Notes: a model not told the origin generated them from the letters alone. Shown: positions 18,359 to 42,130, counted from the first letter of the stretch. The stretch is 64,000 bases of DNA from an uncultured Actinomycetes bacterium (GCA_963706025.1 CAVPLM010000003.1:544001-608000), one strand, 5' to 3'. Numbers and translations: made by a program.

Positions 18359-19622
18359 TCAATGCGCACGATCCGCCTCTTGCCGGTCGGCGGCCCGCCG
18401 CAGGGCGGAGACCACCGGCAGTTCCTGCCCGGAAAGAAAGCGGACCATGCCCCCACCCGAGGTACAAACGTAGCCCATCCGCTCGAGGACTCCGAACTTG
18501 GCACCGGCCGCGACACTGTCGCCGCCGCCGATTACCGAGTAGCCTGGAGAGCTGGCGATGGCCGTCCACAGCCGGCGGGTGCCTTCTGCGCTCTCCACCT
18601 CTTCATATATCCCGGCGGGCCCATTCACGAAGATGGTCGCCGCCTGGCCGATCACCAATTCGTACGCCTCGATGGTCTTGCGACCGATGTCGATCAGTAG
18701 GTGGTCGCTGGGCAGCTCGTCCAGGCCGATCTCCTTGCGACCGCCGTGGTCGATGGCGAAGTCGACCGGACTCAAGATCTTCTCCCCGTATCTGGCGTCG
18801 AGTTCCCTGGCCTTCTCGATGAAAGGTGTGAGACCCTTCTCCTCTATGAGGCGTTCGCTAGGCAGACCCAAGGACGTACCCCGGGCCAGGACCATCACTT
18901 CCCCGTTGAGTCCGCAGCTAAGACACCGATCGGCAGCTCCCGTGCTCAGCACAGCCTCCATCATGCTGAAGGCATCGGCGATACGCGCTCCTCCCAGCAC
19001 ATACACGCACGGGTGACTGGGAGTCTCCTTTGACCCGAGCCAGGGCACCGAACTCCTCGATGAAAAGCCGCCCGGCGGCGGTGGGTAGCACCTCCGCAAA
19101 TCCCACCAGAGAGGGCGAGTAGCGATGCGCAGCCGCAAAGGCCTCGTTTACGAACAGGTCTGCCAATGGAGCCAGATTCCGCACCAGTCTGGTCGCGGCC
19201 AGTTCGGCTGGGGTCAGCTTGACAAAGTTCACGAAGGTGGACACTTCTTCTGAGTAGTAGCGCACATTGTTCAGAAGGAGGAGTTCCCCGGGTTTGAGCG
19301 ACTTGATCGCCTCGACCGCGGCCGGCCCGGCTATGTCGTCGATGAAGTCGACCGGACGTTTGAGCAATTCGGCCAACCGCTTCGCGTGCGGCTCCAAGGA
19401 AACAAGATTGTGATAGTCCTCAGTGTCACCCTGGTGGGCCAGAATAACCACCCTGGCACCGGCATCCGCGAGCTCCCTGATGGTGGGCAGGCTCTTCTGG
19501 ATACGGTTGTCGTTCACCAGTTGCCTGGTCTCGCGGTCGATGGGCGAGTTGATATCGACCCTCAGGAGGACGGTCTTGCCCTCAAGAGCAAAGTCGTCGA
19601 GCGTGTGTATGCCTGCTTCCAT
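18359..19622 (-). CDS. pgk: Phosphoglycerate kinase, archaeal-like (frameshift near 19030)
   Basis: LLRVDINSP, ILAHQG, LLNNVRY, NEAFAAAHR, LGGARIAD, NGPAG and GGGDS; split over two ORFs by one extra A in AAAGGAG. Confidence 0.9.
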
Positions 19623-19647
19623 GACGTCCGGTCTCCACCCGTGAAGG

Positions 19648-20676
19648 TCAGGCCCGGACGCGCATGCCCAGGTACTTGTTGGTGAGCCCCACGGCCTCCA
19701 GCCGGTCCGTCTGCATGGGAACGCAGGCCCGAATGCCGTCGATGGTTTCAGGGATGACCACCGCTTCCTGGGGGATGTAGATGGCGAACATGACGTCCTT
19801 GCCGGAAAGACCAACGCATTCCTCCCACACGCCGATCTCATACATGTCGGCCCGTTTGGTGCCGAGATGCCGCGCGTACTGGAAGAAGGCCGCGTTGGAG
19901 TTAAAGCCGTCCGAGATCTTGACTACCCGGATGCGCGGGTGCTGCTTGAAGATGGAGATGACTTCCTCCACGCCGATGGACTTCTTGGGAGTGGCGACCA
20001 GGTTGACTATGTGCCCGTGAGTGACCGGCGTATGGACGAGCAGGCCGGTGGCATGCACGTGAGGCATGATCTTCATCAGGTCGACGCACTGATGGTTGGG
20101 GACTTTTTCCACCTGGAGAACGTCGACCAAGCCCCGGTGAGTATCGCCCGGGTCGGCCACCCGGCGGATGATGGTGATGGCCACCTTCTCCATCCCCACG
20201 ACCCGGTCGAGGGCATCCACGGCCCGGATGAGGCCGGTGGTGTTGCACGAGGTCAGCTTGAGGAAGTCCTTTCCTATGCCATTCTCGTAGTTGGCGTACC
20301 CGTGGAAGAAGACATCGGCGATGTCGTCTTTCTCGCCCCCCTGAAAGATGGCTTTGACATCGTGCTTGCGATAGAGATCCTTCATCTTGGCGCCGACGCC
20401 ACCGGGTGTGGCGTCCAGGGCCACATCGATCTGCGCGAGGAGGTCTTCAAGCGAGCCTGCCAACTGTACGCCGGCGGCGGAGAACTTGTCCTTCTGTCCT
20501 TCGTCCACGTAGAAGACTTTGAAAGGCGCACCGCTCTCCTGGAGAGCGCGCAGCGGCAGGGTAGGGGCGACGTCAGCCACCCCGACCAGCTCCATGTCGC
20601 CTTGGGCCGCGACCCCATCGGCGAGCCTGCTCCCGATGGTCCCGTAACCGATTACTGCTACTCGAATCTTACTCAC
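19648..20676 (-). CDS. gap: Class II (archaeal-type) glyceraldehyde-3-phosphate dehydrogenase
   Basis: GYGTIGSRLADGVAAQGDMELVGV, DATPGGVG, IFQGGEK, SCNTTGL, RRVADP and IPQEAVVIPETIDGIRA are class II signatures; GTG start with GGAGG RBS. Confidence 0.9.
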   Translation of the reverse strand: MSKIRVAVIGYGTIGSRLADGVAAQGDMELVGVADVAPTLPLRALQESGAPFKVFYVDEGQKDKFSAAGVQLAGSLEDLLAQIDVALDATPGGVGAKMKDLYRKHDVKAIFQGGEKDDIADVFFHGYANYENGIGKDFLKLTSCNTTGLIRAVDALDRVVGMEKVAITIIRRVADPGDTHRGLVDVLQVEKVPNHQCVDLMKIMPHVHATGLLVHTPVTHGHIVNLVATPKKSIGVEEVISIFKQHPRIRVVKISDGFNSNAAFFQYARHLGTKRADMYEIGVWEECVGLSGKDVMFAIYIPQEAVVIPETIDGIRACVPMQTDRLEAVGLTNKYLGMRVRA

Positions 20677-20754
20677 TTCAGGCCTCCCTCCATTGGTACA
20701 GATCCCGACCACGCGGTCGGCTCACGGAGCCTCGCCGGTCCCTCGACTCCTGCA

Positions 20755-22185
20755 TTACCCAGCGTGAAGCGCGCAGCCGGCAGCGGCAAGAGCAGCTTCT
20801 CCGAGGGCCTCGGACAGCGTGGGATGTGCACGGATGACCGAGGAAAGCTCGGTCAGCGTGGCCTCAAGTTCCATGGCCAGCACCGCCTCCGCCAGAAGCT
20901 CTCCAACGTGGGGTCCGACCATGTGAACGCCGAGCACCTGGCCGAAACGTGCTTCGGCTACTATCTTCACAAGCCCGGAATCGCTCGCCTGGGTCTGTGC
21001 GCGACCCGAGGCCGAGAAGGGGAATCTCCCCACCAGGACTTCACGGCCAGTCTCCCTTGCCCGCGCTTCGGTCAGCCCCACGCTTGCTACTTCTGGGTCC
21101 GTATAGGTGACCGAGGGAATGCGATCGGCCCTGACTGGCTGGGGCGAGAGACCGGCCAGCTTCTCGACCGCGACTATGCCCTGGCGAGATGCGACGTGAG
21201 CGAGCAACGCCTGCCCCGTGACATCCCCGATGGCCAGCACCGAAGGCACATTGGTCACCTGGTAAGCATCTGTCAAGACGTACCCTCGAGAGTCGGTCTT
21301 GATACCAGCGGCGGCGAGGTTCAGCCCCTCGGTATAGGGGAATCTTCCGGCAGCCACAAGGACGTATTCCGCAGATAAACCATTGAGCGGTGCACCCGAG
21401 AACTCCACGCTCAAGCCACCCGTGTCCTCTCGAATCGCCTTGACTGCACTCTCTGTGTGGATTGACACCCCCTCGGCCGCAAGCGACTTGGCCAAGATCT
21501 TGCTCATATCAGAGTCCTCGCGGGGAAGGATCGACGGTAGCGCCTCTACGAGAGTGACCTTCGAGCCCAAGCGGGCAAAAATGAGACTCCACTCGCAGCC
21601 CACTGCCCCCGCGCCCACGACGATCAAGCTGGATGGGATTGACTTGAGAGCGAGCGCTCCGTCGGAGTCGAGCACCCGAGGATGATCGGCGCCGGGAATA
21701 GGCAGTGCCGCCGGCTTCGAACCGGTCGCCACCATAATGTGGGCGGCCTCCACCGTCTCTTGGGCGCCAAGCGCCGCGCCCTTGCCGGCACCGATATCGG
21801 CCTCAACCGGCTCGACGACCAGCGTGCGCGGTCCCACGAAGGAAGCGCGCCCGGCCAGGACCTCCACCTTGGCGTGCCTGAGCAGGGTGCGTACCCCGCT
21901 GCGGAGCTTGGCGACCACGTCCTCGCGGCGCTCAAGAGCAGCCGCATAGTCGATGCGTGGCTCCCCCTTGACGATCACCCCGTAGGTAGCGGCGTGCCGC
22001 ACTTCATGAGCGACCGCCGCCGTCTGCAGCATCGCCTTGGTGGGGATGCACCCTCGGTTCAGGCAGATGCCTCCCAGATGGGTGCTCTCGATCAGAGTCA
22101 CCTTCATCCCCAGTTGAGCGGCACGCAGAGCGGCGACATATCCGCCGGGTCCCGCGCCGATGATAGCGAGATCAGTCGTTGCCAT
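20755..22185 (-). CDS. lpdA: Dihydrolipoyl dehydrogenase (E3)
   Basis: GAGPGGYVAA, GGICLNRGCIPTK redox disulfide and C-terminal HPTLSE. Confidence 0.95.
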   Translation of the reverse strand: MATTDLAIIGAGPGGYVAALRAAQLGMKVTLIESTHLGGICLNRGCIPTKAMLQTAAVAHEVRHAATYGVIVKGEPRIDYAAALERREDVVAKLRSGVRTLLRHAKVEVLAGRASFVGPRTLVVEPVEADIGAGKGAALGAQETVEAAHIMVATGSKPAALPIPGADHPRVLDSDGALALKSIPSSLIVVGAGAVGCEWSLIFARLGSKVTLVEALPSILPREDSDMSKILAKSLAAEGVSIHTESAVKAIREDTGGLSVEFSGAPLNGLSAEYVLVAAGRFPYTEGLNLAAAGIKTDSRGYVLTDAYQVTNVPSVLAIGDVTGQALLAHVASRQGIVAVEKLAGLSPQPVRADRIPSVTYTDPEVASVGLTEARARETGREVLVGRFPFSASGRAQTQASDSGLVKIVAEARFGQVLGVHMVGPHVGELLAEAVLAMELEATLTELSSVIRAHPTLSEALGEAALAAAGCALHAG

Positions 22186-22190
22186 GGGCG

Positions 22191-23584
22191 TCAACAGACT
22201 GCGAGCAGCTCATAGGGCTGCTCAAGGTAGTGTTTGACTGTGCGCAAGAAGGCTGCGGCCGGGGCTCCGTCGATGATCCGGTGGTCGAAGGTCAGACTCA
22301 GATACATCATGGAACGGATGGCGATCTGGCCGTCCAGGACCACCGGTTTTTGAACGATGCGGCCGATCCCTAGGATTCCGGCCTCGGGAAGGTTGATGAT
22401 GGGGGTGAAGGCATCGATCTCGTAGGTGCCCAGGTTGGTGACCGTGAAGGTCCCTCCGGTCACATCGTCGGCAACCAGCGTACCGGCCCGGGCCCGTTCG
22501 ATCTTGTCCCGCGACTCCTGGGCTATAGCCTGCACACCCTTGACGTCGGCGTCGTGGATCACCGGGACCACCAGGCCGTCGGCAACCGCGACCGCCACCC
22601 CCACGTTGACCGCGTCCAGCAGCTGGATCTCTTCTTCGCCCACTCGGGCGTTCATCAGGGGGTGCTCGCGCAATGCTTGGGCCGTGATCTTGACCACGAT
22701 GTCGGTGTAGGAGGGACGTACTCCGCCCTGGCTCTCGGCCCGGGCCAGCAAGCAGTCGCGCATCCGCACCGTTTCGGTGACGTCCACTTCGGTGGTGTGC
22801 GTGACCCGGGGGATGGTCCGGGCGCTCTGGAACATCCTCTGGGCGACGATCCGACGCAGGCCGGCCATGGGCACCACGGAGGCGATCTCCGCCGGGGCCA
22901 GGGGCAGACCCGCCCGGGTGGCGGAGCCCACGTCGGCCGGGGCCGGCCCCGCAGCAGGTGCCCCCGCGGCGAGGACATCGGCTCCCCGGATGCGGCCGCT
23001 AACCCCGGTGCCTGCCACGCCGGCCAGGTCCACTCCGGACTCGGCGGCCAGCTTCTTGGCTAGGGGCGTGGCCCGGACCGTGCCGACTGCGGCCTGCTCG
23101 TTCTGCGTACTTGGCCACATCGTCTTCGGTCACCCGGCCCCCGGGACCGGTGCCGGTGACCAGAGCCAGATCGAGGCCCCGCTCGCGTGCCGCCCGCTTG
23201 GCCGCTGGAGAGGCCTTCACGTATTCGCCGCTCCCAACCGACTGGGCGGCCACGGTCGCCACGGCTTCTGCGGGCTTGGTGGCATCGGCCCGTTCCTCGC
23301 CAGGCTCGGCGGTCGCAGCTGCGTCCTTATCGGGCACTTCCTCCCCAGCTTCGCCGATCCAGCAGAGGGCCCCCTCGACCGGGACGACTGTATCCACGGG
23401 AGCCACGATCTTGAGCAGCACCCCGGCTTCGGGGGCTTCGACCACATTGTTCACCTTGTCGGTGAGCACCTCCACAATCGACTCGCCCTTGGCGACGGCC
23501 TCTCCCTCCTGCTTCAGCCACTCAGTCACCGTGACTTCCTGCGGTGGTGAGTCCCATATAGGGCACATTCACTCTGGTCGCCAT
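22191..23584 (-). CDS. Dihydrolipoamide acyltransferase (E2); two frameshifts near 23540 and 23100
   Basis: Lipoyl domain EVLTDKVN, two E3-binding domains (KASPAAKR..GTGPGGRV, RATPLAKK..GTGVSGRI) and catalytic DHRIIDG. Confidence 0.9.
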
Positions 23585-23593
23585 GATTGCCCC

Positions 23594-24571
23594 CTAAAGG
23601 AGTCCGCGGACGGCACTAGCGATGTCGTTCTCATCGGGGATGAAGGCCTTCTCGAGCACCGGGCTGAAGGGAACCGGAGTGTCCCACCCGCACACGCGCG
23701 CCACCGGGGCATCCAGGTAGTCAAAGACGTTCTCCGTTATCCGCGAGGCGATCTCCGCCCCGATGCCGCACGGTCTTGCGAGCTTCGTGAACGATGACCG
23801 CCCGATGGGTCTTACGCACCGATTCACAGATGCGCTCCAGGTCCAGGGGCCTGATGGTGCGGGGGTCGATCACCTCCACGCTCATGCCCTCCTCGGCCAG
23901 CTTCTCGGCCGCCGCGAGCGCCTTGGGCACCATGGCCGATATGGCGACCACGGTGACATCCGTGCCCTCTCGGGGAACCGCGGCCACCCCGAAGGGGATG
24001 GTGTACTCCTCCCCCTCGTCCGGCACCGGTCCGGTGGTCCGGTAGAGCATCTTGTGCTCGATGAAAACCACCGGGTCCTCGCCCCGGATGGCGGTCTTTA
24101 AGAGACCCTTGGCATCATACGGGGTGGCCGGCATCACCAGAAGGAGGCCGGGCGAATGCAGTATCCAGGCCTCCAGGCACTGGGAATGGTGGGCGGCTGC
24201 TCCGCGGCCGGCACCTTCCGCGGTCCGGATCACCAGGGGCAGCTGGCTTTGCCGCCGAACATGTACCGGATCTGGCCCGCTTGGTTGGCGATCTGGTCCA
24301 GGCACACCCCGAGGAAGTCGGTCTGCATGATCTCCGGCACGGGGCGCATGCCCGTCATGGCCGCCCCTATGCCGCAGCCCACGATGGCCGATTCAGATAT
24401 GGGCGTATCGCGGACTCTCTCCTCGCCGAACTGCTCGCGCAGGTCGCCGCTCACGCCGTAGATCCCCCCGTAGGGTCCGCAGTCCTCGCCGAACATGAAC
24501 ACGGTCGGATCGCGGAGCATCTCTTCCCGGAGGGCTTCTCTCACCGCCTGACTGTAGGAAATCTCTCTCAT
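23594..24571 (-). CDS. ThDP-dependent dehydrogenase E1 beta subunit (acetoin/pyruvate type); frameshifts near 24245 and 23771
   Basis: [35 protein letters not shown] and FDYLDAPV across three ORF pieces. Confidence 0.9.
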
Positions 24572-24599: not shown

Positions 24600-25616
24600 C
24601 TACAGGCCTGAATCGGCCAGATGGGCAAAAGCGGGGCTGTAGACGTCGGTCTTGCCGTCCTTCAACTCCGGGAAGGGGGCGCTCTTCGCATAAGCGACGG
24701 CCGACTCTATCTCCGCGTCGATCTCCGCGTGGATGGCGTCCAGTTGCTTCTGGGTAGCTTGCTTGGACTCCTTCAGCCACACTCCGAACCGGGCGATGGC
24801 GTCCTTTTCGGGGGCCTCCCACTGCTGCATCTCCTCGGCCGAGCGATAGCGCATCCCCCGGCCGGGATCACCCTCGAAATGCCCGCGCAGGCGATAGGTC
24901 TTGCACTCGACCAGAGACGGCCCCTCTCCGGACCTGGCCCGCTCAACGGCGGCCGCGACCGCCTCGTAGACGGCCATCACGTCGTTTCCATCTACAACGA
25001 CACCGGGCATGCCGTAGCCCGGCGCCCTGTCGGCCACGTCAGTGATGGCCTGATGCCGTTCTTGCGAAACCGAGATGCCATAGCCGTTGTTCTCGCAGAC
25101 AAAGACGAGGGGCACCTTCCAGGTGGCCGCCAGGTTGAGCGCCTCGTGCGCCGCTCCAGAGTTGGAGGCGGCATCCCCGAAGAAGGCCAGACAGACCTGG
25201 CCTGATTGGCGCAGCAGGGCGGAGTAGGCAGCCCCGACGGCTATGGGAAGACCGGAGCCGACGATGCCCATGGCGCCCAGAATGCCCAGGTCCAGATCGG
25301 CGATGTGCATGGACCCGCCCTTGCCCTTGCAGTATCCGGTCGCCCGTCCGAAGAGCTCGGCCATCATCTTGTCGGTCTGGCCGCCCTTGGCGATCAGATG
25401 GCCGTGGCCCCGGTGGGTGCTCGTGATGTAGTCGTCAGGCTTGAGGGCGCTGCACGCTCCCACGGCCACCGCCTCCTCGCCTGCGTAGAGGTGGGCGAGG
25501 CCGGGCATGGTGCCCTCGGCATACATCTCCACGATCTTCTCCTCAAACCGCCGTATGCGCAGCATCTTGCGATACATCTCGAGGAGCTGCTCTCTGCTCG
25601 GGCTCTTGGGGCTCAA
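24600..25616 (-). CDS. ThDP-dependent dehydrogenase E1 alpha subunit (AcoA/PdhA-like)
   Basis: HLYAGEEA, STHRGHGH, GKGGSMH, GDAA...CENN ThDP motif and TYRLRGHFEGD (acetoin-dehydrogenase-like). Confidence 0.92.
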   Translation of the reverse strand: MSPKSPSREQLLEMYRKMLRIRRFEEKIVEMYAEGTMPGLAHLYAGEEAVAVGACSALKPDDYITSTHRGHGHLIAKGGQTDKMMAELFGRATGYCKGKGGSMHIADLDLGILGAMGIVGSGLPIAVGAAYSALLRQSGQVCLAFFGDAASNSGAAHEALNLAATWKVPLVFVCENNGYGISVSQERHQAITDVADRAPGYGMPGVVVDGNDVMAVYEAVAAAVERARSGEGPSLVECKTYRLRGHFEGDPGRGMRYRSAEEMQQWEAPEKDAIARFGVWLKESKQATQKQLDAIHAEIDAEIESAVAYAKSAPFPELKDGKTDVYSPAFAHLADSGL

Positions 25617-26045
25617 GTCGGAACTCCTTCACATTTCGTCGTCCGCAAACACCGACTCCTCATCGCGTAGGCTCTTTCGCTGGCCTGTCGATCCACCCTT
25701 GCCTAGTGCCGGTTCTCACCAGGCTCGGAGTATTGCCGAATAGCTGAACCGTGATCACTTCAGTCCTCGTCGTGTCTGAGGTCGAAGTGCAAGAAGTGGA
25801 ATTGTCATCAACCCAGACTCAGGACGACCCACTGAACCTTGGCCCCTTTCGAATTGTGGCAACCTATCCCTCAGGGTCGAACCCAACTTCACCGGACAAC
25901 CTCGGCTCTGCGTCCATGTCTCGTCTCGCCCAGTCCGTTCAGACGCCGCCGTTCATGTCGAGCATAGTTCAGGCGAAATACGGGGAGCCGTTGTACGGGA
26001 GAAGAGACGTGGAATTTGCGGTAACTGCCCCCCACCGGATCTCCT

Positions 26046-26137
26046 CGACCCGCCAAAACGAGCGCCCGACTATACCGACAGTGTGATATTGGCCCAAAGG
26101 GCAGGTTTTGTCAATATGTCCAATCGCTTTCAGATAA
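26046..26137 (-). promoter_or_regulatory. Promoter/leader copy 1 (left catabolic operon)
   Basis: Minus strand ATTGACAAAACC...CAATATCAC..CTGTCG..AGTCGGGCGCTCGTTTTGGCGGGTCG; TTGACA-17 nt-CAATAT; homologous to 27083-27172. Confidence 0.75.
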
Positions 26138-26188
26138 AGACAAACCCATGGCCCGGTCGGGTCTGCTGACAGCGCGTCGAGAGGTCAG

Positions 26189-27007: not shown

Positions 27008-27082
27008 TAGTTGACAAAACCTCCCCGGTTTGCTCAAGAATATACCATGGCGCGCTCGATGACAGACACGCCCTGATAATCT

Positions 27083-27172
27083 CTATCTGGAACAAATTAG
27101 GGATATTGACAAAACCCGTCCGGTACGCCAGTATCACTCTGTCGACAGTCGGGTGCTCGTGTTGGCGAGTCG
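27083..27172 (+). promoter_or_regulatory. Promoter/leader copy 2 (right catabolic operon)
   Basis: ATTGACAAAACC...CAGTATCAC..CTGTCG..AGTCGGGTGCTCGTGTTGGCGAGTCG; TTGACA (27106)-17 nt-CAGTAT. Confidence 0.75.
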
Positions 27173-33906: not shown

Positions 33907-34401
33907 ATGAAGGGGCCGACAGTGGCTTTGGGCACGCTGGCTCAGATCGGCGTAGTGGTGAGAGATCTGCAGAAGACTATCGATGAGTACTGGAACATTT
34001 TTGGCATAGGTCCGTGGAGCATTTGGAAATATGATCCCACAGTCGTTGAGGACGTGACCTACCGAGGTGAGCCCCACGAGTTCGCGTGGACGATTGCGCT
34101 GGCCCAGGATGGACCGGTTCAATGGGAAGTTATCGAGCCGCTCTGGGGGGAGAGTATCTACACGGAGTTTCTTCGGGAGCACGGAGAAGGTTTGCACCAC
34201 GTGGCCTACTTGGTGGACGGCGCCTGGAAAATCGTTGAAGACCTCAACCCAGTTGGGGTGACCGCGATTCAGAGCGGCTTCGTCAAAGGGCGTCCGTTCA
34301 TCTACCTCGATACAGAAAAACGGTTGGGGGCGTGCTTTGAGTTGATTGGGACAGGGGGCACACACCTCCCTCCCGACAGGGTTTACCCGAGCGCGGAGTA
34401 A
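33907..34401 (+). CDS. VOC/glyoxalase superfamily protein (methylmalonyl-CoA epimerase-like)
   Basis: QIGVVVRDL, WEVIEP, GEGLHHVA and FELI metal-site pattern. Confidence 0.85.
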   Translation: MKGPTVALGTLAQIGVVVRDLQKTIDEYWNIFGIGPWSIWKYDPTVVEDVTYRGEPHEFAWTIALAQDGPVQWEVIEPLWGESIYTEFLREHGEGLHHVAYLVDGAWKIVEDLNPVGVTAIQSGFVKGRPFIYLDTEKRLGACFELIGTGGTHLPPDRVYPSAE

Positions 34402-34479: not shown

Positions 34480-34863
34480 ATGGGCAGGGAAGAGAACATC
34501 GCCGTAGTCGCGAAGTACACCGAGGCAGTCAACAAGCGTGACGCGGAAGGTTTCCTGTCTGTCTTTGACGCCGATTCCGTGTGGATCGATCCAATGGGTA
34601 CTCCACCGTGCGTTGGCCCGGAGCAGATCCTCCGTGGCATCCAGGGTTTCTGGGACGCCCTTCCCAGCCTTACGCTGACCCCCCTCAGGATCATCGCTGA
34701 TGGAGACATCGTGGTCAGCGAGGTGGCCTGCGACGTTGCCAACGCCGAGGGAAAGACAGCGCACATCGAGGCCGCTGACATATTCGAAATACGAGACGGC
34801 AAGATCAGGAACTGTCACGCCTACTCCGACCCCGCCTGGATTAGCCGCCAACTAGCCGGCTAG
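34480..34863 (+). CDS. NTF2/SnoaL-fold protein, ketosteroid-isomerase-like
   Basis: 127 aa; AVVAKY13..N..D..G...F..D...D37PMG and D100IF align with KSI Y14/D38/D99. Confidence 0.8.
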   Translation: MGREENIAVVAKYTEAVNKRDAEGFLSVFDADSVWIDPMGTPPCVGPEQILRGIQGFWDALPSLTLTPLRIIADGDIVVSEVACDVANAEGKTAHIEAADIFEIRDGKIRNCHAYSDPAWISRQLAG

Positions 34864-34960: not shown

Positions 34961-36832
34961 ATGCCTAACGGTTACACCGGCAACATCCTTAGGGTTGACC
35001 TGACGCGTGGGACCTGGGCAACGGAGCACCCCGAGGAGATCTTCTATCGCACGCATCTGGGTGGTAGGGCGTTGGCCGCCTATTACCTGCTGAACGATGT
35101 TCCTGCTTCGGCCGATGCTCTTGGCCCTGCGAACGAGCTCGTTTTCGCTGTGAGCGTGACCACGGGTGCCCCGGTTCCGGGGCTCTCGCGCTACACGGTG
35201 GCGGCGAAGTCCCCTCTGAGTGGTCTGTATGGTGAGGCCGAGGCCAGCGGGTACTTTGGCGCCGAGATGAAGTGGGCTGGATATGATGCGATCATCTTCG
35301 AGGGATGTTCACCCCACCCAGTGTACCTTGCCATCGTCGATGGACAGGTTGAGCTCCGCGACGCTGCCCACCTATGGGGCAAGGACACTGGCGATGTCCA
35401 GGCGGCCATCTGGGAGGAATTGGGTGACAAAAAGGTGCAGGTTGCTCAGATTGGACCCGCAGGTGAGAACCTCGTTCGGTTCGCGTGTGTACTGTCAGGG
35501 CCCGTTTTTAGTCACGTGAACGGACGAGCTGGTATGGGTGCTGTCATGGGCTCGAAGAAGCTGCGCGCGGTGGCAGTCCGTGGTCACCAGAAGAACGCGG
35601 TTAAGGACAGGGAGGCGCTGAAGACGCTGGCCGCGTGGTTTGGACAGACCTGGAAGTCGAACCCTGACGATCTTCTACTACACGAGGTTGGCACCGCCGC
35701 CTACCTTTCGGCACTGGATGCAGCAGGTATCTTGCCTACCCGCAACTTCAGCGAAGGGACTTTCGAAGCTACCGATGCTGTCAGCGCCGAGGCCATGCGC
35801 CAGGAGCTGGTGGTGAGCAGCGAAGGCTGTTACGCCTGTCCTGTGCGGTGCAAGCATCCTGTGGAGTCGGATGGTGTCTACAAGATAGATCCGCTGTACG
35901 GCGGTCCGGAGTACGAGAGTCTGGCAGCTTTCAGTTCATCCCAGGGTGTATCTAACGTGGCCGCGGCAGCCAAGGCGAACGAGCTGTGCAATCGCTGGGG
36001 CTTGGACACGATCGGGGCGGGAGTCACGATTGCCTTTGGGCAGGAGTGCCTCGAAAGGGGCATCCTGAGTGAGGAGGAGGTCGGCGTCGAGTTGCGCTTC
36101 GGCAACGCTGAGGCAATGCTGACGATGCTTGAGCAGATCACTTTCCGAAGAGGTTTCGGCGACATCCTTGCCGAGGGAACGAAGCGCGCGGCCGAGAAGA
36201 TTGGCAAAGGTGCGGAGAAGCTGGCCATGCAGGTCAAGGGACAGGAGTTGCCGCTGCATGACCCGCGAGGCAAGAAAGGCGTGGGACTGGGTTACGCAGT
36301 ATCTCCCACGGGGGCGGACCATCTGCAGATTGAGCACGACGGTGCTTTTGCCGCTCAGGGCCTTTTTCTGGACAAGATCAGGCCGCTGGGGATCAATGAA
36401 CCTGTCGATGCCCTTTCTCTTGGACCCGAGAAGACGCGACTCTTCACCTACTTGCAGATATGGTGGAGTCTGCTAAACAGCCTGGATTGGTGCTACTTCA
36501 CTGTCGCACCCGTCCGTCACTTTGAAGTTGAACATGTGGCGCAGATCGTCGAGGCCTGCACAGGCTGGAACACTAGCACCTGGGAACTCATGAAGGTTGG
36601 AGAGCGCGCTCTGACGGAGTTGCGCCTGTTCAACCTGAAGCACGGCTGGAGCAGGAAGGACGATGCACTGCCTGATCGTCTGTACGAGCCGTTGCCAGGC
36701 GGTCCGATGGAGGGATTCAGGATGGACCGCGGGGAGGTGGAAGCGGCTATCGACGCCTATCACGGCATGATGGGATGGGATGAACGAACCGGTGTACCCA
36801 CAGGGGCGAAGTTGGCGGAGCTGCAACTGTGA
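34961..36832 (+). CDS. Tungsten/molybdenum aldehyde:ferredoxin oxidoreductase (AOR family)
   Basis: GYTGNILRVDL, AKSPLSG, IGPAGEN, GRAGMGAVMGSKKL, CYACPVRC, GPEYE and GLDTI. Confidence 0.93.
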   Translation: MPNGYTGNILRVDLTRGTWATEHPEEIFYRTHLGGRALAAYYLLNDVPASADALGPANELVFAVSVTTGAPVPGLSRYTVAAKSPLSGLYGEAEASGYFGAEMKWAGYDAIIFEGCSPHPVYLAIVDGQVELRDAAHLWGKDTGDVQAAIWEELGDKKVQVAQIGPAGENLVRFACVLSGPVFSHVNGRAGMGAVMGSKKLRAVAVRGHQKNAVKDREALKTLAAWFGQTWKSNPDDLLLHEVGTAAYLSALDAAGILPTRNFSEGTFEATDAVSAEAMRQELVVSSEGCYACPVRCKHPVESDGVYKIDPLYGGPEYESLAAFSSSQGVSNVAAAAKANELCNRWGLDTIGAGVTIAFGQECLERGILSEEEVGVELRFGNAEAMLTMLEQITFRRGFGDILAEGTKRAAEKIGKGAEKLAMQVKGQELPLHDPRGKKGVGLGYAVSPTGADHLQIEHDGAFAAQGLFLDKIRPLGINEPVDALSLGPEKTRLFTYLQIWWSLLNSLDWCYFTVAPVRHFEVEHVAQIVEACTGWNTSTWELMKVGERALTELRLFNLKHGWSRKDDALPDRLYEPLPGGPMEGFRMDRGEVEAAIDAYHGMMGWDERTGVPTGAKLAELQL

Positions 36833-36920: not shown

Positions 36921-37550
36921 ATGGCGACCGATTTGGTCAGCCTCGTATCAGATTTGAAGGAGGAAGAGGCCCTAGAACTGGCTCAAGACAGACTAAACCG
37001 GGGGGATGACCCGCTCGCTATTCTGAACGATGCGAGAAAGGGCTTGGAGATCGTTGGCAAGCGTTTTGAGCAAGGGACGTACTTCATCCCAGACCTGGTC
37101 TACTCGGGCGAGATACTTCAGGGAATCTCAGCCATCGTCAAACCAAGATTGACCGGCGGGGCCGGCGGCGAGAAGATCGGCAAGTTCATTCTGGGAACCG
37201 TTGCCGGCGATATTCACGATATTGGCAAGGATATTGTTAAGTTCATGCTGGATATCAACGGTATTGAGGTCCATGATCTGGGGGTGGACGTCCCCGCCCA
37301 GAGATTCGTGGAAGCAATAAGGGAGACTGAAGCGCCCCTCGTCGGGCTGAGCGGGTTCCTGACCTTAGCCTTCGATTCGATGAGGGAGACGGTAGAAGCC
37401 ATCAGGCTGGCCGGGCTGAGAGACCAGGTGAAGATTCTGATCGGCGGCTTCCCCGTGGACGAGGAGGTCAGGGTCTATACCGGTGCGGACGCTTTTGGGA
37501 AGGACGCCACGCAGGCTGTGTCGCTTGCGAAGGCCTATCTAGCACTCTGA
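36921..37550 (+). CDS. Corrinoid (B12-binding) methyl-carrier protein
   Basis: Cap domain plus GTVAGDIHDIGK (DxHxxG), VGLSG and LIGG. Confidence 0.93.
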   Translation: MATDLVSLVSDLKEEEALELAQDRLNRGDDPLAILNDARKGLEIVGKRFEQGTYFIPDLVYSGEILQGISAIVKPRLTGGAGGEKIGKFILGTVAGDIHDIGKDIVKFMLDINGIEVHDLGVDVPAQRFVEAIRETEAPLVGLSGFLTLAFDSMRETVEAIRLAGLRDQVKILIGGFPVDEEVRVYTGADAFGKDATQAVSLAKAYLAL

Positions 37551-37581
37551 AGGTTTGGGAAACCGAATAGGGGGTTCTTAC

Positions 37582-38916
37582 ATGGAGGAGAAGACCAAAG
37601 CCCAGGAGATGTTGGATCTGTGGTGCTCCGCTCCCGGCATCGAATTCGTCGACTCTGAGGCTGAGGAGGCGTATAAGTCCAGGACCCGAAGGATCGCCGA
37701 CGCGATTCAACTCAAGAAACCGGATAGAGTGCCCGTCACTCCCATGTGGGAATACTACTACGGCGTCTACTCGAAGGTCAGCAGTTATGACTGCCTCTAC
37801 AACCCGGATATCGCCAGATGGGCAGTCAAAAAGACAATCACCGAACTGAAACCGGACGCGTTTGAAGCACCATTCAACTTCATGATCGGACCCGTGCTCG
37901 ACGCTCTTGGCGAGAAGGACCTGCTCTGGGCGGGTCATGGGTTAGACTACAACGCTGCGCACCAGTACGTCGAAGGGGAGCATCTCAAGGCAGACGAATA
38001 CGAGGCTCTTATTAACGACCCCAGTGACTGTATGATGAGGGTGGTCCTGCCTCGTGTCTGCGGCAACCTGAAGGGCCTTGAGGTCCTGGCCCCCCTGCGC
38101 AATACCTTTTTCACCTACGCCATGTACGGCCAGTTTGCTGGCCTGGGCACCCCGGAAGGCAAGGAAGCGCTGAGCGCCCTCATGAGGGCTGGAGAGGCTT
38201 CTCGGGCGTATGTGGACTGGGTCGCCGCGACAAGCCAAGAGATGTACTCTCTAGGCTTCCCGTGCTTCATCGGGGGCATCTGTTTTGCGCCCTACGACGC
38301 TGTGGCCGACTCGCTGAGAGGTACTCACGGCGCCATGATGGACATGTACCGTCGGCCAGAGCTATTGAAGGAGGCCTGCGAGAAGTTTCTGTGGGTGAAC
38401 TTCAATCTCGCCATGGCCGCTACAGAAGCGGCGAAGAACCCGATTGCCTTCATCCCACTTCACAAGGGCACGGCCTCCACCCGCGATGGCAAGGGCGGCT
38501 TCATGTCCCTAGGGCAATTCGAGGAGTTCTACTGGTACTACCTGAGAAGACTGATGATGAAGCTCATCGAGAACGGCAGAGTGCCCCATCTGCTCATCGA
38601 GGGTGACTACACGTCCCGGCTGGAGATCATCAAAGACGTGCCTCCGGGCACCTGCATCTACCACTTTGAAGAGGTAGACATCCCGAAAGCCAAGGAAGTG
38701 CTTGGCGACCGAGTCTGCCTGCAGGGCAAAGTCCCGATCCAGCTGATGTGGATGGGTACACCCCAAGACGTCAAGGACTACTGCAAGCATCTGATTGACG
38801 TCTGGGGTGAGGGCGGGGGTTTTATCATGGACATGGTGATGGCCTCGGAGCAGATCAGGCCGGAAAACATGAAAGCCTTAATTGAATTCACGAAGGAATA
38901 CGGCGTGTATCGATGA
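37582..38916 (+). CDS. UroD/MtaA-CmuA-fold protein, putative substrate:corrinoid methyltransferase
   Basis: KKPDRVPV, SLRG..G.MMDMYRRPE, FIPLHKG, FEEFYW, K.KEVLG...CLQG and GGGFI; flanked by corrinoid and MeTr genes. Confidence 0.8.
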   Translation: MEEKTKAQEMLDLWCSAPGIEFVDSEAEEAYKSRTRRIADAIQLKKPDRVPVTPMWEYYYGVYSKVSSYDCLYNPDIARWAVKKTITELKPDAFEAPFNFMIGPVLDALGEKDLLWAGHGLDYNAAHQYVEGEHLKADEYEALINDPSDCMMRVVLPRVCGNLKGLEVLAPLRNTFFTYAMYGQFAGLGTPEGKEALSALMRAGEASRAYVDWVAATSQEMYSLGFPCFIGGICFAPYDAVADSLRGTHGAMMDMYRRPELLKEACEKFLWVNFNLAMAATEAAKNPIAFIPLHKGTASTRDGKGGFMSLGQFEEFYWYYLRRLMMKLIENGRVPHLLIEGDYTSRLEIIKDVPPGTCIYHFEEVDIPKAKEVLGDRVCLQGKVPIQLMWMGTPQDVKDYCKHLIDVWGEGGGFIMDMVMASEQIRPENMKALIEFTKEYGVYR

Positions 38917-38965
38917 TGAGGAAGCCTCGATTGAGTCAAGGCCTGGCGATCCAAGAGGGGTAGGC

Positions 38966-39772
38966 ATGCTTCTCATCGGTGAGAAGATAAATGGCACCCG
39001 CGAAAGCGTAGCTGACGCCATTCGAAGCAGGGAGAAGGGATTCATCGCGGATCTGGCGCTGCGTCAGGTAGAGGCCGGAGCAACGTACCTTGATGTGCAT
39101 GCGGGGACGCGCCCGGAGGATGAGCCGGCAGACATGGTGTGGCTGATCGATGCCATCCAGCGGGTCACCGATGTCACGCTCTGCCTCGACAGCGCAAACC
39201 CCCGTGCCCTGGTTGCCGGCCTAGACGCGGTGAAGAAGAAGCCCATGATCAACTCCCTCAGTGGCGAGAAGAATCGGGTGGAGAATGTCCTCCCCTGGGC
39301 ATGCAAGTACGAGACCGAGCTTGTTGTCCTGGCAATGGATGACCGGGGGATCCCCAAGTCAGTCGATGAGAGACTCTCCATTGTGCGCTCCCTCGTGGAA
39401 CTGACCCGTGATGGGGGGCTGCCGGACGAGAAGCTATACATTGATCCCCTAATCACAGCTGTTGCCACCGACACCGGAAGCGGCATCACAGCGTTTGAGA
39501 CGATGCGGCGAATTAAAGAGGAGTTTCCCGAGGTCCATCTCACAGCCGGACTGAGCAACATCTCCTTTGGCCTCCCGGTCAGGCCGATTGTTAACCAGGC
39601 CTTCGCGGTTCTGGCCATCGAGGCTGGGTTGGACAGCGCGATCCTCGATCCTGAGGATGTTGAGCTGCGAGGCATCATGTACGCCGCCGAACTGGTGCTC
39701 GGCAGGGACAGACGCTGCCAGGGTTATACCAACGCCTATCGCGCCGGGCTCATAGGCAGGCAAAACGGCTAG
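38966..39772 (+). CDS. Methyltetrahydrofolate:corrinoid methyltransferase (AcsE/MeTr-like, pterin-binding)
   Basis: LIGEKINGT, LCLDS, MINS, YIDPL, GLSNISFGLP and LDSAILDP. Confidence 0.92.
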   Translation: MLLIGEKINGTRESVADAIRSREKGFIADLALRQVEAGATYLDVHAGTRPEDEPADMVWLIDAIQRVTDVTLCLDSANPRALVAGLDAVKKKPMINSLSGEKNRVENVLPWACKYETELVVLAMDDRGIPKSVDERLSIVRSLVELTRDGGLPDEKLYIDPLITAVATDTGSGITAFETMRRIKEEFPEVHLTAGLSNISFGLPVRPIVNQAFAVLAIEAGLDSAILDPEDVELRGIMYAAELVLGRDRRCQGYTNAYRAGLIGRQNG

Positions 39773-40027: not shown

Positions 40028-40876
40028 TTGATTAGAGGAACCCCAGACACAGATTGGACGGCGCTCAATCGTCTCGCCTCTCGCCTTCGGGCAGACGTGA
40101 TCGAGATGCTCTATCGCGCTCAGGCTGGCCACCCTGGGGGATCGATGAGTGCGGTAGAGATACTCGTCGCTCTGTATTTCAAGATCCTCCGCGTCGACCC
40201 ACAAAACCCGCGATGGGTCAACCGCGACCGCTTTGTGCTTTCAAAGGGACACGCCTCGGCAATCTACTACGCTGTGTTGGCAGAGCGGGGCTTCTTTCCC
40301 AAGAGCGTGCTGGCTACATACGATGAGCTTGACTCATGTCTGCAGGCTCATCCAGACTTGCAGACGCCGGGAGTCGACGCTCCTTCTGGCTCGCTGGGTC
40401 AGGGGTTGTCGGTGGGGGTAGGAATGGCTCTCGCCGCCCGCCTCGATGCGAAAGACTGCCGTATATACGTGCTCCTGGGAGATGGGGAGTTGGAAGAAGG
40501 GCAAGTCTGGGAGGCAGCGATGGCCGCCTCAAGGTTCAACCTGTGTACTTTGACGGCCATCGTCGACTACAACAAACTCCAGCTCGCGGGGCGCACAAAT
40601 GAAGTGATGGCTATAGAACCGCTCTCCGAGAAGTGGAAAGCCTTCAACTGGCACGTGATCGAGGTGCCGGGTCACGACATTAGGGCAGTCGCGGAGGCAT
40701 GCAGCACCGCGGCGACGATTACGAACCAGCCGACCGTCATAGTCGCCCACACCGTGAAAGGTAAAGGCGTCTCCTTCATGGAAGACGACTATCGGTGGCA
40801 CTCGGCTCCGATCACGGATGAAAACAGGGAGCGGGCGTTGGCAGAGCTAGGCGCAGCCGACGGGGGCGCGAGATGA
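40028..40876 (+). CDS. Transketolase N-terminal subunit (split transketolase)
   Basis: GHPGGS, RDRFVLSKGH, GSLGQG, GDGELEEG..DYN and HTVKGKG. Confidence 0.92.
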   Translation: MIRGTPDTDWTALNRLASRLRADVIEMLYRAQAGHPGGSMSAVEILVALYFKILRVDPQNPRWVNRDRFVLSKGHASAIYYAVLAERGFFPKSVLATYDELDSCLQAHPDLQTPGVDAPSGSLGQGLSVGVGMALAARLDAKDCRIYVLLGDGELEEGQVWEAAMAASRFNLCTLTAIVDYNKLQLAGRTNEVMAIEPLSEKWKAFNWHVIEVPGHDIRAVAEACSTAATITNQPTVIVAHTVKGKGVSFMEDDYRWHSAPITDENRERALAELGAADGGAR

Positions 40877-41811
40877 TACCGGGGTCGATTGTCGCTTTGC
40901 GGGATGGCTTTGGACAGGCTCTTGTCGACCTCGGGGCGACCAATCGACGCCTCGTTGTCCTGGACGGCGACGCCGCGCCCTCCACTAAGGCCAGCATGTT
41001 CGCGTCAGCATACCCGGACAGATTCTTTCAATTCGGCATCGCTGAGCAGAACATGATGAGTGCTGCAGCAGGCTTCGCATCCTTTGGCTTTGTGCCGGTC
41101 GTCAGTATCTTTGCCTGCTTCGCAACGAAGAGAGCGCTTGACCAGATCCGTATCTGTATAGCTCAACCTGCTCAGCACGTCGTCATCGCCGCCGGCTTCA
41201 GCGGCCTGCTGGTGGGCAAGAACGGTAAGACTCATCAATCGGTTCAAGACATGTCCATCATGCGCTCGATGCCGGAGATGACGGTCATCGCTCCGGCTGA
41301 TAGTGAGGAGGCGTATTGGGCTGTACTGGCAGCCGTCGAGTGTGACGGCCCGGTATACGTTCGACTGGTACGGGATCCAACGCCGGTCGTCTTCGAAAGC
41401 CGGCGTGACTTTGAGATTGGTCGAGCGATAACCGTCAGGGAGGGCAAGGACATAGCGCTGATTACCACCGGCACGATGCTGCCGCGGGCCATTGAGGCGG
41501 CAGACCTGCTCGAGCGTGAAGGAATACACGCCTACATCCTTCACGTCCCCACTCTCAAGCCGTTGGATGAAGATGCAATCGTTACCGCAGCCAAGGTGAC
41601 CTCGGCTGTAGTCACTTGCGAGGAACACAGCATCATCGGCGGCCTGGGGGGTGCAGTTTCCGAGACGTTGAGCGAACGCTGCCCGACGATAGTTGCGAGA
41701 GTAGGGTTGCGGGATACGTACGGTGCGTCGGGACCGCCTGAAGCTCTCCTCAAGAAGTTCGGGCTTACTGGAGAAGACATTGCAGCAAGCGCCCGGCGTT
41801 TGCTGGGGTGA
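40873..41811 (+). CDS. Transketolase C-terminal subunit with altered substrate loop
   Basis: GIAEQNM, THQ, GPVYVRL, KPLD and EEHSIIGGLG; overlaps the upstream gene's stop. Confidence 0.9.
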   Translation: MIPGSIVALRDGFGQALVDLGATNRRLVVLDGDAAPSTKASMFASAYPDRFFQFGIAEQNMMSAAAGFASFGFVPVVSIFACFATKRALDQIRICIAQPAQHVVIAAGFSGLLVGKNGKTHQSVQDMSIMRSMPEMTVIAPADSEEAYWAVLAAVECDGPVYVRLVRDPTPVVFESRRDFEIGRAITVREGKDIALITTGTMLPRAIEAADLLEREGIHAYILHVPTLKPLDEDAIVTAAKVTSAVVTCEEHSIIGGLGGAVSETLSERCPTIVARVGLRDTYGASGPPEALLKKFGLTGEDIAASARRLLG

Positions 41812-41881
41812 CGACGAAATTGACCGTGGCATTTGTGCGCAAACAGCCTACTCACCAACCTTCACGGGACCTGGTGCGCCG

Positions 41882-42130
41882 GTGAAGGCCAAGGTACTTG
41901 TGAAGCTGCCAGCGGGGGTAGTCGGACTGGGTCTACCTCTAGAAGTTGAGTGCGAGGGAGAAACAGTCGCTGAGGCTCTGGCTGACTCGATCGCTCACGA
42001 GCCCAAGCTGAAGTCACGGATACTTCGCGACGATGGTCACGTAGTCACGGGTGTGTTCCTCAATGGTCGGAACGTCCGGCAAAGTGGGGGTTCGGAAGCG
42101 TTGGAAGGTGGGGCTTGGCGGTGCTACTAG
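41882..42130 (+). pseudogene. MoaD/ThiS-like sulfur carrier lacking the C-terminal Gly-Gly
   Basis: VKLP....EVECEGETVAEAL...EPKLKSRI...VFLNGRNVR beta-grasp pattern, then diverges to end EGGAWRCY. Confidence 0.6.

Follow-up and report, generated by a model that had tools for sequence, protein, structure and literature searches.

A 64,000-nucleotide stretch of the genome of an uncultured Actinomycetes bacterium (GCA_963706025.1, CAVPLM010000003.1:544001-608000), referred to here as the window and corresponding to contig C3:544001-608000 of the host genome (G000), carries a genomic island with two operons, or arms, on the two sides of a gene for an IclR-family regulator. The right arm encodes an ATP-binding cassette (ABC) importer with its solute-binding protein (SBP), an Fe-S flavoenzyme with an old yellow enzyme (OYE) domain, a vicinal oxygen chelate (VOC) protein, a SnoaL-type protein, an aldehyde:ferredoxin oxidoreductase (AOR), a corrinoid protein, a substrate:corrinoid methyltransferase (MT1, also MTI) and a methyl-corrinoid:tetrahydrofolate (THF) methyltransferase (MT2, also MTII), followed by a split transketolase and a small MoaD/ThiS-like open reading frame (ORF). 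The left arm encodes the E1 alpha, E1 beta, E2 and E3 subunits of a thiamine diphosphate (ThDP)-dependent dehydrogenase complex, a type II glyceraldehyde-3-phosphate dehydrogenase (GAPDH) and a phosphoglycerate kinase (PGK) (Table 1). An earlier, sequence-only reading took the two arms as one complete route for a single solute. The comparisons reported here point instead to a mosaic, an interpretation to which we give about an even chance: a conserved core for the uptake and processing of a methylated compound would have been joined by a transketolase module and by a left arm that sits behind a copy of the core's own promoter.

Families were assigned from Pfam and NCBIfam scans with curated cut-offs, and solved relatives were ranked by E-value. 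All gene families named in the sequence-only reading were recovered in this way, except for MoaD and the acetoin type of the dehydrogenase complex.

A genomic island beside a tRNA-Thr gene

Three same-genus genomes (G001, G002 and G003) are collinear with the window from holB through the tRNA-Thr gene to positions 18110-18113 and then jump to a region with a Fic gene; synteny resumes at 43422, 44691 and 45214, respectively. This break and resumption of collinearity identify 18110-43422 (~25 kb), which holds both arms and is absent from all three genomes, as an insertion. It is a tRNA-associated genomic island, recognised by the insertion itself rather than by an integrase or attachment (att) repeats, and is best explained as a strain-level accessory element. 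The guanine-plus-cytosine (GC) content of the left arm is 0.644, like that of the flanks, while the stretch that begins with the left-arm leader and the IclR gene and extends over the right arm and the transketolase to the final ORFs has 0.565-0.60.

The arrangement was also recovered from independent short reads. Two studies contributed four sediment runs, whose Logan contigs were compared with the window over 18200-38199 and are 93-99% alike to it. These contigs bridge E1 alpha, the leader and the IclR gene (25405-26970) as well as the GAPDH and E3 genes (20158-21698). The adjacency of the arms is therefore not a misassembly, and the two-arm arrangement exists in the natural population, at species-level similarity only.

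A conserved core recurs without the other modules

A search for co-occurrence of these genes in other genomes had been proposed together with the sequence-only reading. In an Actinomycetota metagenome-assembled genome (MAG; G041), the importer ATPase, SBP, two permeases, OYE, VOC, SnoaL, AOR, corrinoid protein, MT1 and MT2 genes follow one another in the same order. Amino-acid identities, calculated over unbroken genes since the G041 assembly is also fragmented by indels, range from 73 to 93%: 88.9% for the ATPase, 91.5% for the second permease, 91.1% for OYE, 73.3% for VOC, 92.9% for SnoaL, 93.1% for AOR, 86.0% for the corrinoid protein, 88.1% for MT1, 88.5-92.3% for MT2 and 71.6% for residues 2-117 of IclR. 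Within 9 kb after the MT1 and MT2 genes nothing is related to the window except for a 34% OYE paralogue, and no transketolase is present. To the left of the IclR fragment lies unrelated DNA with no left arm, and no type II GAPDH was found in the G041 genome.

Similarly, a 4.5-kb metagenome contig (L051) has the layout of the window, with IclR at 77%, ATPase at 93%, SBP at 84% and permease at 86% identity. In G002 (the same genome as G042) the corrinoid trio is found alone, at 81-83% identity and in another context. The expected co-occurrence thus holds for the core, which recurs in G041 and partly in L051, but not for the transketolase, E1/E2/E3 and GAPDH-PGK genes, which do not travel with it. 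On the evidence of gene order and identity, IclR and the importer form a conserved unit with OYE, VOC, SnoaL, AOR, corrinoid protein, MT1 and MT2.

The left arm stands behind a copy of the core promoter

Each arm is preceded by a promoter-like element with the same spacing and a common downstream block (Table 1). The two copies are identical at 73 of 93 aligned bases, and their local alignment score of 78 compares with 17.7 +/- 2.0 (maximum 26) in 500 shuffles. Pattern searches, used because blastn-short of the copies against the genome was too insensitive, found the 13-nt core and longer patterns of the element at only these two sites in the whole 3.66-Mb genome. The duplicated promoter described in the sequence-only reading is well founded on these three counts. 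The orthologous promoters of G041 and L051 keep the blocks of the right-arm copy but do not contain a 6-nt insert that is common to both window copies; the left copy was therefore derived, recently, from this genome's own right-arm promoter. The left arm would have been brought under the control of the core by this recent duplication of promoter and operator, and, judging from the shared element, both arms are probably switched on together in this lineage.

The arms had been described as two divergent operons flanking the IclR gene. Both arms and the regulator are present, but the IclR gene is transcribed in the same direction as the left arm, and the operons do not, strictly speaking, diverge from it. 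The best NCBIfam matches of the regulator, BhcR and PcaR/PcaU, are all under cut-off. The left-arm leader of about 430 nt is not explained by a riboswitch, since no RNA family matched within 25500-27300 at E<=1 in Rfam; over the whole window Rfam returned tRNA only, and a 111-aa ORF of the leader had no Pfam match. A consensus promoter and terminator scan of 25000-43500 gave fewer promoter-like sites than shuffled sequence; it missed the duplicated element and did not divide the genes into units. A weaker third promoter-like copy, TTGACAAAACC with an upstream TATCTAGAA block, lies at 26985-27035, 95 nt upstream of the right-arm copy, where it overlaps the first IclR codons on the opposite strand.

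Probable sources of the left arm and the transketolase module

The E1/E2/E3 genes have a paralogous cluster on contig C16 of the same genome that is 81-96% identical, with homology running exactly from the E1 alpha start codon to the E3 stop codon. The earlier designation of this complex as acetoin-type could not be upheld, as pyruvate dehydrogenase (PDH) and acetoin types are not distinguishable by the models: E1 alpha scores 363.8 bits on the PDH model TIGR03182 (cut-off 393.85), with human PDH E1 alpha as its best solved relative (E 3.9e-65), and the AcoC model PRK14875 (71.8 bits, cut-off 307) matches the lipoyl end of E2 only.

The C16 cluster belongs to a locus (L058, C16:20001-39543) in which one strand carries two AOR genes and, between them, those for a zinc-dependent alcohol dehydrogenase, two ABC ATPases, a permease and an SBP_bac_1 protein. 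On the other side of a GntR/FCD regulator gene come E1 alpha, E1 beta, E2 and E3, and the contig ends ~400 bp after E3. The placing of AORs and a sugar-type importer on one side of a regulator and of E1/E2/E3 on the other parallels the logic of the island.

The class II GAPDH and PGK of the sequence-only reading were confirmed, and the GAPDH passes both type II models. An intact orthologue of the PGK in G015 has 2cun as its nearest solved relative (E 5.9e-85), an archaeal enzyme, with bacterial PGKs at E 9.3e-65 or weaker. Because a class I GAPDH and a bacterial PGK lie together on contig C5 of the host, the island pair is an extra copy. It has a patchy distribution, being found in 4 of 40 relatives (G011, G015, G019 and G031) with GAPDH identities of 69-92%: 86-92% in three other genera of the family and 69% in another family. 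In none of these four genomes does the pair stand beside E1/E2/E3 or right-arm genes. HolB identity was considered as a yardstick for transfer of the pair and rejected as not comparable enough. In G015 the neighbours of the pair (L032, C42:3993-16922) are a pyrogallol-hydroxytransferase-like molybdoenzyme with its Fe-S subunit, a thiolase, succinyl-CoA-ligase-like subunits and LarA-like and UxaE-like proteins, a neighbourhood that may point to a metabolism of trihydroxybenzenes in the family.

The split transketolase was correctly named in the sequence-only reading and is of the ordinary split type, with its chain divided over two genes, 6yaj (the split transketolase of C. hydrogenoformans) as a solved relative at E 2.1e-90, and two further split paralogues in the genome. 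The MoaD assignment of the following ORF did not survive: its scores are below the cut-offs (SAMP1 27.1 bits against 60; moaD_arch 17.1 against 49.5), no Pfam family matches, and the C-terminal Gly-Gly is lost, the ...PPIAGG end of a 62%-identical paralogue on the same contig being absent.

The transketolase and the decayed MoaD-like gene would form a second module of the mosaic, next to the core. The left arm would be the third, composed of a PDH- or acetoin-type E1/E2/E3 set copied from the genome's own paralogue and a GAPDH-PGK pair that circulates in the family. These additions may serve as a central-carbon outlet or a gluconeogenic supply rather than as obligatory steps of one pathway.

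The same data bear on the proposal that both arms are one dedicated, complete route for one methylated, polyoxygenated solute, running from uptake through demethylation, C=C reduction and isomerisation, ThDP-dependent cleavage by transketolase and E1/E2/E3, and AOR oxidation to a last, ATP-yielding step in which GAPDH and PGK oxidise a C3 product. A promoter that is confined to the two arms in the whole genome, the location of both in one insertion beside tRNA-Thr and the recurrence of the arm junctions in contigs of two independent studies would all suit such a route, as would the C16 locus, where AORs and an importer are again paired with E1/E2/E3 around a regulator. Literature searches found no paper describing this gene set, in keeping with the earlier statement that no described pathway has it. 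However, outside the species-level population the modules do not occur together: G041 has the core only, G002 the trio alone, and four relatives the GAPDH-PGK pair without the other modules. The island is also split by its GC content, the left promoter copy is a recent local duplicate, the transketolase is ordinary with split paralogues elsewhere, and archaeal type II GAPDH with PGK is usually gluconeogenic and not ATP-yielding. The claim of one complete route for one solute is not sustained by the co-occurrence and composition data, and we consider it quite improbable.

Frame breaks in the left arm

Five single-base breaks, not mentioned in the sequence-only reading, are present in the assembled left arm: in E1 beta at ~24243 (-1) and ~23771 (+1), in E2 at ~23540 and ~23100, and in PGK at ~19029, such that E1 beta and E2 are each read in three frames and PGK in two. 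The four E1 beta and E2 breaks were placed by alignment with the C16 paralogues, of which E1 beta is intact and E2 has one continuous frame through the ~23540 and ~23100 points. The PGK break, one extra base, was placed with three orthologues.

In the Logan contigs, the four runs each have a covering contig without the extra base at 23542, one base at 23770-23772 is absent from all covering contigs in runs X1 and X3, and the one covering contig of run X3 has an extra base at 24241. These contigs are distinct from the C16 copy, their variants equalling the C16 base at 5 of 18 listed sites. Because the independent contigs lack them, three of the five breaks are most likely consensus errors. Further one-base differences between contigs and window occur at 26058 and 28311 (3 of 3 covering runs each), and the assembly is indel-prone elsewhere, with breaks in the C16 copies of E2 and E3 and two split MT1 paralogues. 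One-base disagreements (26058, 28311, 30820 and the left-arm sites) amount to about one per 4 kb of the compared stretch, pointing to residual indels, which may have altered the 3' end of the ATPase gene and the terminal part of the first permease gene.

The breaks could be taken to mean that the arms are functionally unrelated neighbours in a variable region, with the left arm a decaying duplicate behind a copied promoter fragment. All five fall within 7.3 kb of the left arm, whereas no ORF is interrupted in 27230-41811; the C16 E1/E2/E3 genes could make the left-arm copy redundant, and the region varies among same-genus genomes. This account is weakened by the independent contigs, which lack three of the five breaks and are not the C16 copy, and by the indels of the assembly at other places (C16, the MT1 paralogues, 26058 and 28311). 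Moreover, E1 alpha, E3 and GAPDH are intact, and the promoter copy keeps both hexamers and the downstream block. We therefore hold a decaying, unrelated left arm to be rather improbable.

Predicted chemistry of the core

In the mosaic that we favour, the low-GC core is the first module, and IclR would control an operon for the uptake and first processing of one methylated organic compound. The substrate would most likely be a plant-derived methyl ether with an enone or aldehyde function; a preference for methoxylated plant compounds is what we infer from the many MT1 paralogues of the lineage and its sediment habitat. In a tentative order of reactions, the lipoprotein SBP, exported by the twin-arginine translocation (Tat) pathway, and the ABC importer would bring the compound in. 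The corrinoid protein, in its Co(I) state, would receive the methyl group from MT1, and MT2 would pass the group on to tetrahydrofolate. The ene-reductase, with Fe-S, FMN and FAD, would reduce an activated C=C, the VOC and SnoaL proteins would epimerise or isomerise the product, and AOR would interconvert aldehyde and acid with ferredoxin.

The corrinoid protein, UroD-fold protein and methyl-THF methyltransferase of the sequence-only reading are supported by Pfam and NCBIfam matches and by the DIHDIG motif. Since a corrinoid protein, an MTI fold, an MTII and an activator are all encoded, the trio is, by these sequence features, a three-component corrinoid system; the RACE-type activator lies outside the island (C5:1036543-1037322, PF14574, 291.8 bits). 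No acetyl-CoA synthase of the CdhC family was found in the genome, which is 92% complete. Homologues of MT1 are 444-445 aa long, and its true start is probably at about residue 10; that of MT2 is probably near residue 29. Clusters of MT1 relatives number 3 at 78-90% identity and about 45 at 55-66%; their only label is UroD family. A query of genome contigs with MT1 gave 3 loci. MT1 belongs to an uncharacterised MTI clade, and its assignment to the known MTI fold holds at the superfamily level only.

For the Fe-S flavoenzyme, the VOC and NTF2-type proteins and AOR, Pfam matches, motifs and solved relatives agree with the families that had been named. The best solved relatives of the OYE protein are 6qkg (2-naphthoyl-CoA reductase, NCR; E 7.7e-100) and 1ps9 (2,4-dienoyl-CoA reductase, DCR; E 1.3e-89). 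It misses the equivalog cut-offs for BaiCD (473.6 against 825), mycofactocin OYE2 (473.4 against 793.15) and bilirubin reductase (451.4 against 750), and its homologues outside the close clade are at ~50% identity or below and carry no functional names; by these scores it is a member of the broader Fe-S OYE/FAD group only. In the Protein Atlas the VOC protein falls in generic VOC clusters only, and a sample of 400 other genomes from across the phylum yielded no relative of the SnoaL protein at E<=1e-15. AOR matches 1aor at E 8.9e-117 and has a CxxCxxxC motif (CYACPVRC) at residue 290, features that place it by sequence in the AOR family.

The SBP has no Pfam match and only a weak PotD/PotF match in NCBIfam (48 bits against cut-offs of 582 and 636). 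A structural model built from 32 sequences (mean predicted local distance difference test score, pLDDT, 88.2) matched PotD and PotF in Foldseek with target template-modelling (TM) scores of 0.79-0.85 and probability 1.00, and the family profile matched PotD at E 8e-34. The ligand contacts of E. coli PotD (W34, T35, E36, Y37, S83, Y85, D168, E171, W229, W255, D257 and Y293) were mapped onto the SBP. Of the 12 mapped positions, 3 are kept (D263, W336 and W361, corresponding to D168, W229 and W255), and W34, T35, E36, Y37, S83, Y85, E171, D257 and Y293 are changed, such that D168 is the only one of the four acidic contacts retained, E36, E171 and D257 being replaced. Because only 3 of the 12 contact positions are kept, the SBP is predicted to be unlikely to bind a polyamine. 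Family-conserved positions are Trp-rich with Asp and Glu (D150, W315, E329, W336, E356, W361 and W453), and the ligand may be aromatic or cationic. The importer was thus rightly called Pot-type with regard to its PotD fold, PotA-like ATPase and PotB/C-like permeases, and the associated hint at a nitrogen-containing solute is weakened by the altered contacts. The SBP family is small: a word search gave 7 proteins at E<=1e-20, including the window's own, full HMMER gave 23 representative clusters at E<=1e-30 of 1.84 billion, and a query of metagenome contigs gave 1 close locus and 5 distant ones.

Several observations weigh against a mosaic built around a methyl-ether core. With respect to the island, no repeat of the tRNA-Thr gene longer than 16 nt was found and no integrase was present among the scanned ORFs. 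With respect to co-regulation, the IclR gene of G041 is truncated after residue 117, and an intact regulator is thus not a constant companion of the operon; none of the listed runs containing the stretch was an RNA run. In five E1/E2 loci of relatives, no AOR lies within ~10 kb. The breaks at ~23100 and ~19029 have little contig cover, and the assembled E1 beta, E2 and PGK genes each lack a single continuous reading frame. With respect to the chemistry, the nearest solved relatives of OYE act on CoA thioesters, yet the island has no CoA ligase or transferase, and the descent of the SBP from polyamine receptors, together with its Trp-rich conserved positions, would fit a cationic methyl donor as well. 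The substrate class is a guess, as MT1 has no more than a distant relationship to any characterised MTI; the best and only solved relative of MT1 is CdmB (9rui, E 5.5e-23), matched over residues 197-450 only. CdmB is a haloalkane MTI of Acetobacterium dehalogenans that acts on haloalkanes and not on methyl ethers (PMC13222342). The same paper places CdmB in a UroD superfamily of MTIs with the O-demethylases MtvB, OdmB, VdmB and MtoB and many clades of unknown substrate (PMC13222342).

Both points from that source, and the ancestry and conserved Trp, Asp and Glu positions of the SBP, are consistent with a core that acts on a non-ether methyl donor, such as a halomethane, a methyl-thiol or a methylated onium compound or amine, the other enzymes handling the remaining skeleton. 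Gaseous halomethanes, however, need no ABC importer or SBP, and the match to CdmB is of low identity and limited to the C-terminal half. For a cationic donor, nine of twelve PotD contacts and three of the four acidic ones are lost, and the known quaternary-amine corrinoid systems use MttB-family MTIs rather than UroD-fold enzymes. A non-ether donor is thus unlikely in our estimation, and a methyl ether remains the preferred substrate of the core.

The most far-reaching interpretation would make the whole island one co-regulated, undescribed anaerobic route for a plant-derived methylated compound, for instance a methoxylated isoflavonoid or phenylpropanoid or an O-methyl cyclitol. Under one IclR regulator acting on both copies of the promoter, a Trp-rich PotD-fold receptor, a new UroD-type MTI clade, the ene-reductase with the VOC and SnoaL proteins, cleavage by transketolase and E1/E2/E3, and harvest by AOR and GAPDH-PGK would act in succession. 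Taken together, this route and its steps are very improbable.

Host, habitat and significance

The host genome is 3.66 Mb in 30 contigs with a GC content of 64%, an estimated completeness of ~92% and an estimated contamination of 7.3%. Its tRNA genes as a whole, among them a tRNA-Ile/tRNA-Ala pair, show it to be bacterial. The nearest public records with the same genes are labelled as uncultured Actinomycetota and Gaiellales MAGs, and near-identical sequence is present in freshwater-sediment and sediment metagenome runs; the best explanation is that the host is an anaerobic Gaiellales-like actinobacterium of sediment. UroD-type MT1 genes are expanded in its family, with 11 matches in the host, up to 17 in relatives and at least one such gene in 19 of 24 family genomes. 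The host also encodes at least 7 AOR paralogues, at least 7 Fe-S OYE paralogues and a tRNA-Sec.

Which methylated compounds of plant and humic origin can feed anoxic sediments and soils depends on corrinoid demethylase systems, and for most UroD-type MTI clades no substrate is known. The locus links one clade of this kind to a dedicated importer, an AOR, an ene-reductase and two small proteins of isomerase type, and thereby offers a compact, testable set for finding a new substrate in an uncultured lineage with many MT1 paralogues. It also illustrates how a regulon may grow by promoter duplication, an E1/E2/E3 and type II GAPDH-PGK block having come to stand behind a fresh copy of the core promoter. 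The parts are familiar; their value is as an entry point to an uncharacterised MTI clade and as a case of regulon assembly. In terms of method, the gene neighbourhood seen in one long-read MAG suggested too unified a pathway, and uncorrected indels hid untranslatable genes.

Gene inventory and surroundings of the island

The features of the island are compiled in Table 1. To the right of it, the variable region (43460-47838) contains two Fic-domain genes (43460-44671 and 45288-46469) and an AAA_14/DUF4143 ATPase gene (46669-47838, minus strand). An 80% paralogue of the first of these Fic genes lies on contig C5, and the same-genus genomes keep differing subsets of the region. Beyond it, 48040-53452 encodes a short-chain dehydrogenase/reductase (SDR), a 3-hydroxyacyl-CoA dehydrogenase, an ADP-forming acyl-CoA synthetase and a beta-keto acid cleavage enzyme (BKACE), followed by kdp genes. 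To the left of the island, a 572-aa ORF (16356-18074) follows the DNA polymerase III delta-prime gene; its product is Ala/Gly/Arg/Pro-rich and has no Pfam match, and the ORF is conserved at the DNA level in same-genus genomes.

Table 1. Features of the island and its borders in window coordinates, with the evidence for each assignment.
Feature	Position	Strand	Evidence
tRNA-Thr(CGT), left island border	18037..18109	+	ARAGORN and Rfam
PGK, read in two frames	18359..19623	-	Pfam PGK profile 1-187 and 178-379 on two ORFs
Type II (archaeal-type) phosphorylating GAPDH	19648..20712	-	NF003251 382.9 bits (cut-off 185); TIGR01546 298.2 (232.9); SCNTT motif
Dihydrolipoyl dehydrogenase (E3)	20755..22194	-	TIGR01350 532.1 bits (cut-off 408.8); Pfam
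E2 acyltransferase: lipoyl domain, two E3-binding domains, catalytic domain	22191..23585	-	Pfam 2-oxoacid_dh, E3_binding; TDKV lipoyl end
E1 beta, read in three frames	23594..24571	-	Pfam Transket_pyr and Transketolase_C on middle piece
E1 alpha, ThDP-dependent, PDH or acetoin-dehydrogenase type	24600..25616	-	Pfam E1_dh 306.8 bits
Left-arm leader, ~430 nt, without recognisable gene or RNA family	25617..26045	-	GC 0.565 over spacer 25617-26188
Promoter-like element, left-arm copy	26046..26140	-	TTGACA, 17 nt, CAATAT, common downstream block
IclR-family regulator	26189..27037	-	Pfam HTH_IclR and IclR_C
Promoter-like element, right-arm copy	27080..27172	+	TTGACA, 17 nt, CAGTAT, common downstream block
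ABC importer ATPase, PotA/MalK type	27230..28312	+	ABC_tran and TOBE_2; PotA model 343.6 bits, below cut-off 482
SBP, 459 aa, Tat-exported lipoprotein	28374..29753	+	TRRQF and LAAC signals; PotD/PotF fold
Two ABC permeases, 29842-30819 and 30966-31817	29842..31817	+	Pfam BPD_transp_1
Fe-S flavoenzyme, 661 aa: OYE domain, 4Fe-4S motif, FAD/NAD(P) domain	31846..33831	+	CxxCxxxCx11C at residue 362; two GxGxxG
VOC (Glyoxalase_4) protein, distantly like methylmalonyl-CoA epimerase	33907..34401	+	Pfam/NCBIfam
SnoaL_2 / NTF2-fold protein	34480..34863	+	Pfam
AOR	34961..36832	+	AFOR_N PF02730 239.8 bits; AFOR_C PF01314 406.7 bits
Corrinoid protein, B12-binding_2 and B12-binding	36921..37550	+	PF02310 75.8 bits; PF02607 48.1 bits; DIHDIG at residue 97
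UroD-superfamily substrate:corrinoid methyltransferase (MT1)	37555..38916	+	Pfam URO-D PF01208 65.9 bits (cut-off 23.9)
Methyl-corrinoid:THF methyltransferase (MT2, MeTr type)	38882..39772	+	NF005719 325.6 bits (cut-off 259); PF00809 85.8 bits
Split transketolase, N half 40028-40876, C half 40873-41811	40028..41811	+	Pfam; NF004559 halves 325.2 and 275.8 bits
MoaD/ThiS-like ORF, degenerate 3' end	41852..42130	+	Weak SAMP1/MoaD scores
Right island end: putative lipoprotein and small ORF of no known family	42131..43422	+	No Pfam match; lipobox; GC 0.595 over 42131-43459

Comparison with known systems

The importer resembles the PotD/PotF systems in the fold and profile of its SBP (E 8e-34), its PotA-like ATPase and its PotB/C-like permeases. 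It differs from them in the altered contact positions of the SBP, scores below the NCBIfam cut-offs, a Tat signal, a lipobox, a Thr/Ala-rich linker and a small family.

The E1 alpha, E1 beta, lipoyl-bearing E2 and E3 genes in one operon are reminiscent of AcoABCL and of PDH with a heterotetrameric E1. In contrast to these, the left-arm E2 is a classical 2-oxoacid_dh acyltransferase and the operon runs on into type II GAPDH and PGK. The latter pair is like archaeal type II GAPDH with PGK, both type II models being passed and the PGK orthologue being nearest to 2cun, but its host is a bacterium that has a class I GAPDH and a bacterial PGK too, and the pair stands at the end of an E1/E2/E3 operon.

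The OYE protein shares its OYE barrel, CxxCxxxCx11C motif and FAD/NAD(P) domain with the 2,4-dienoyl-CoA/2-enoate reductase group, which includes DCR, 2-naphthoyl-CoA reductase, BaiCD and daidzein reductase. That a small isomerase-type partner adjoins it recalls BaiCD with BaiE/BaiI and daidzein reductase with dihydrodaidzein racemase. BaiE and BaiI are NTF2-fold partners of BaiCD; dihydrodaidzein racemase probably has a VOC fold. The cofactor make-up of daidzein reductase and the action of the racemase by enolisation are given in a published account (PMC11572103). The island protein differs from this group in lying under all equivalog cut-offs, in its nameless homologues and in having no CoA ligase or transferase nearby.

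Finally, the corrinoid trio, a UroD-fold MTI, a DxHxxG corrinoid protein and a pterin-binding MTII side by side, corresponds to the three-component, THF-linked systems (Odm, Vdm, Mtv, Mto and CdmBCA), and the same gene-trio logic is described for cdmBCA (PMC13222342). In contrast to these O-demethylases and CdmBCA, the host is an actinobacterium in which no CdhC was found, the MT1 belongs to an uncharacterised clade, and the trio shares its operon with an ABC importer, an Fe-S ene-reductase, VOC and SnoaL proteins and an AOR.

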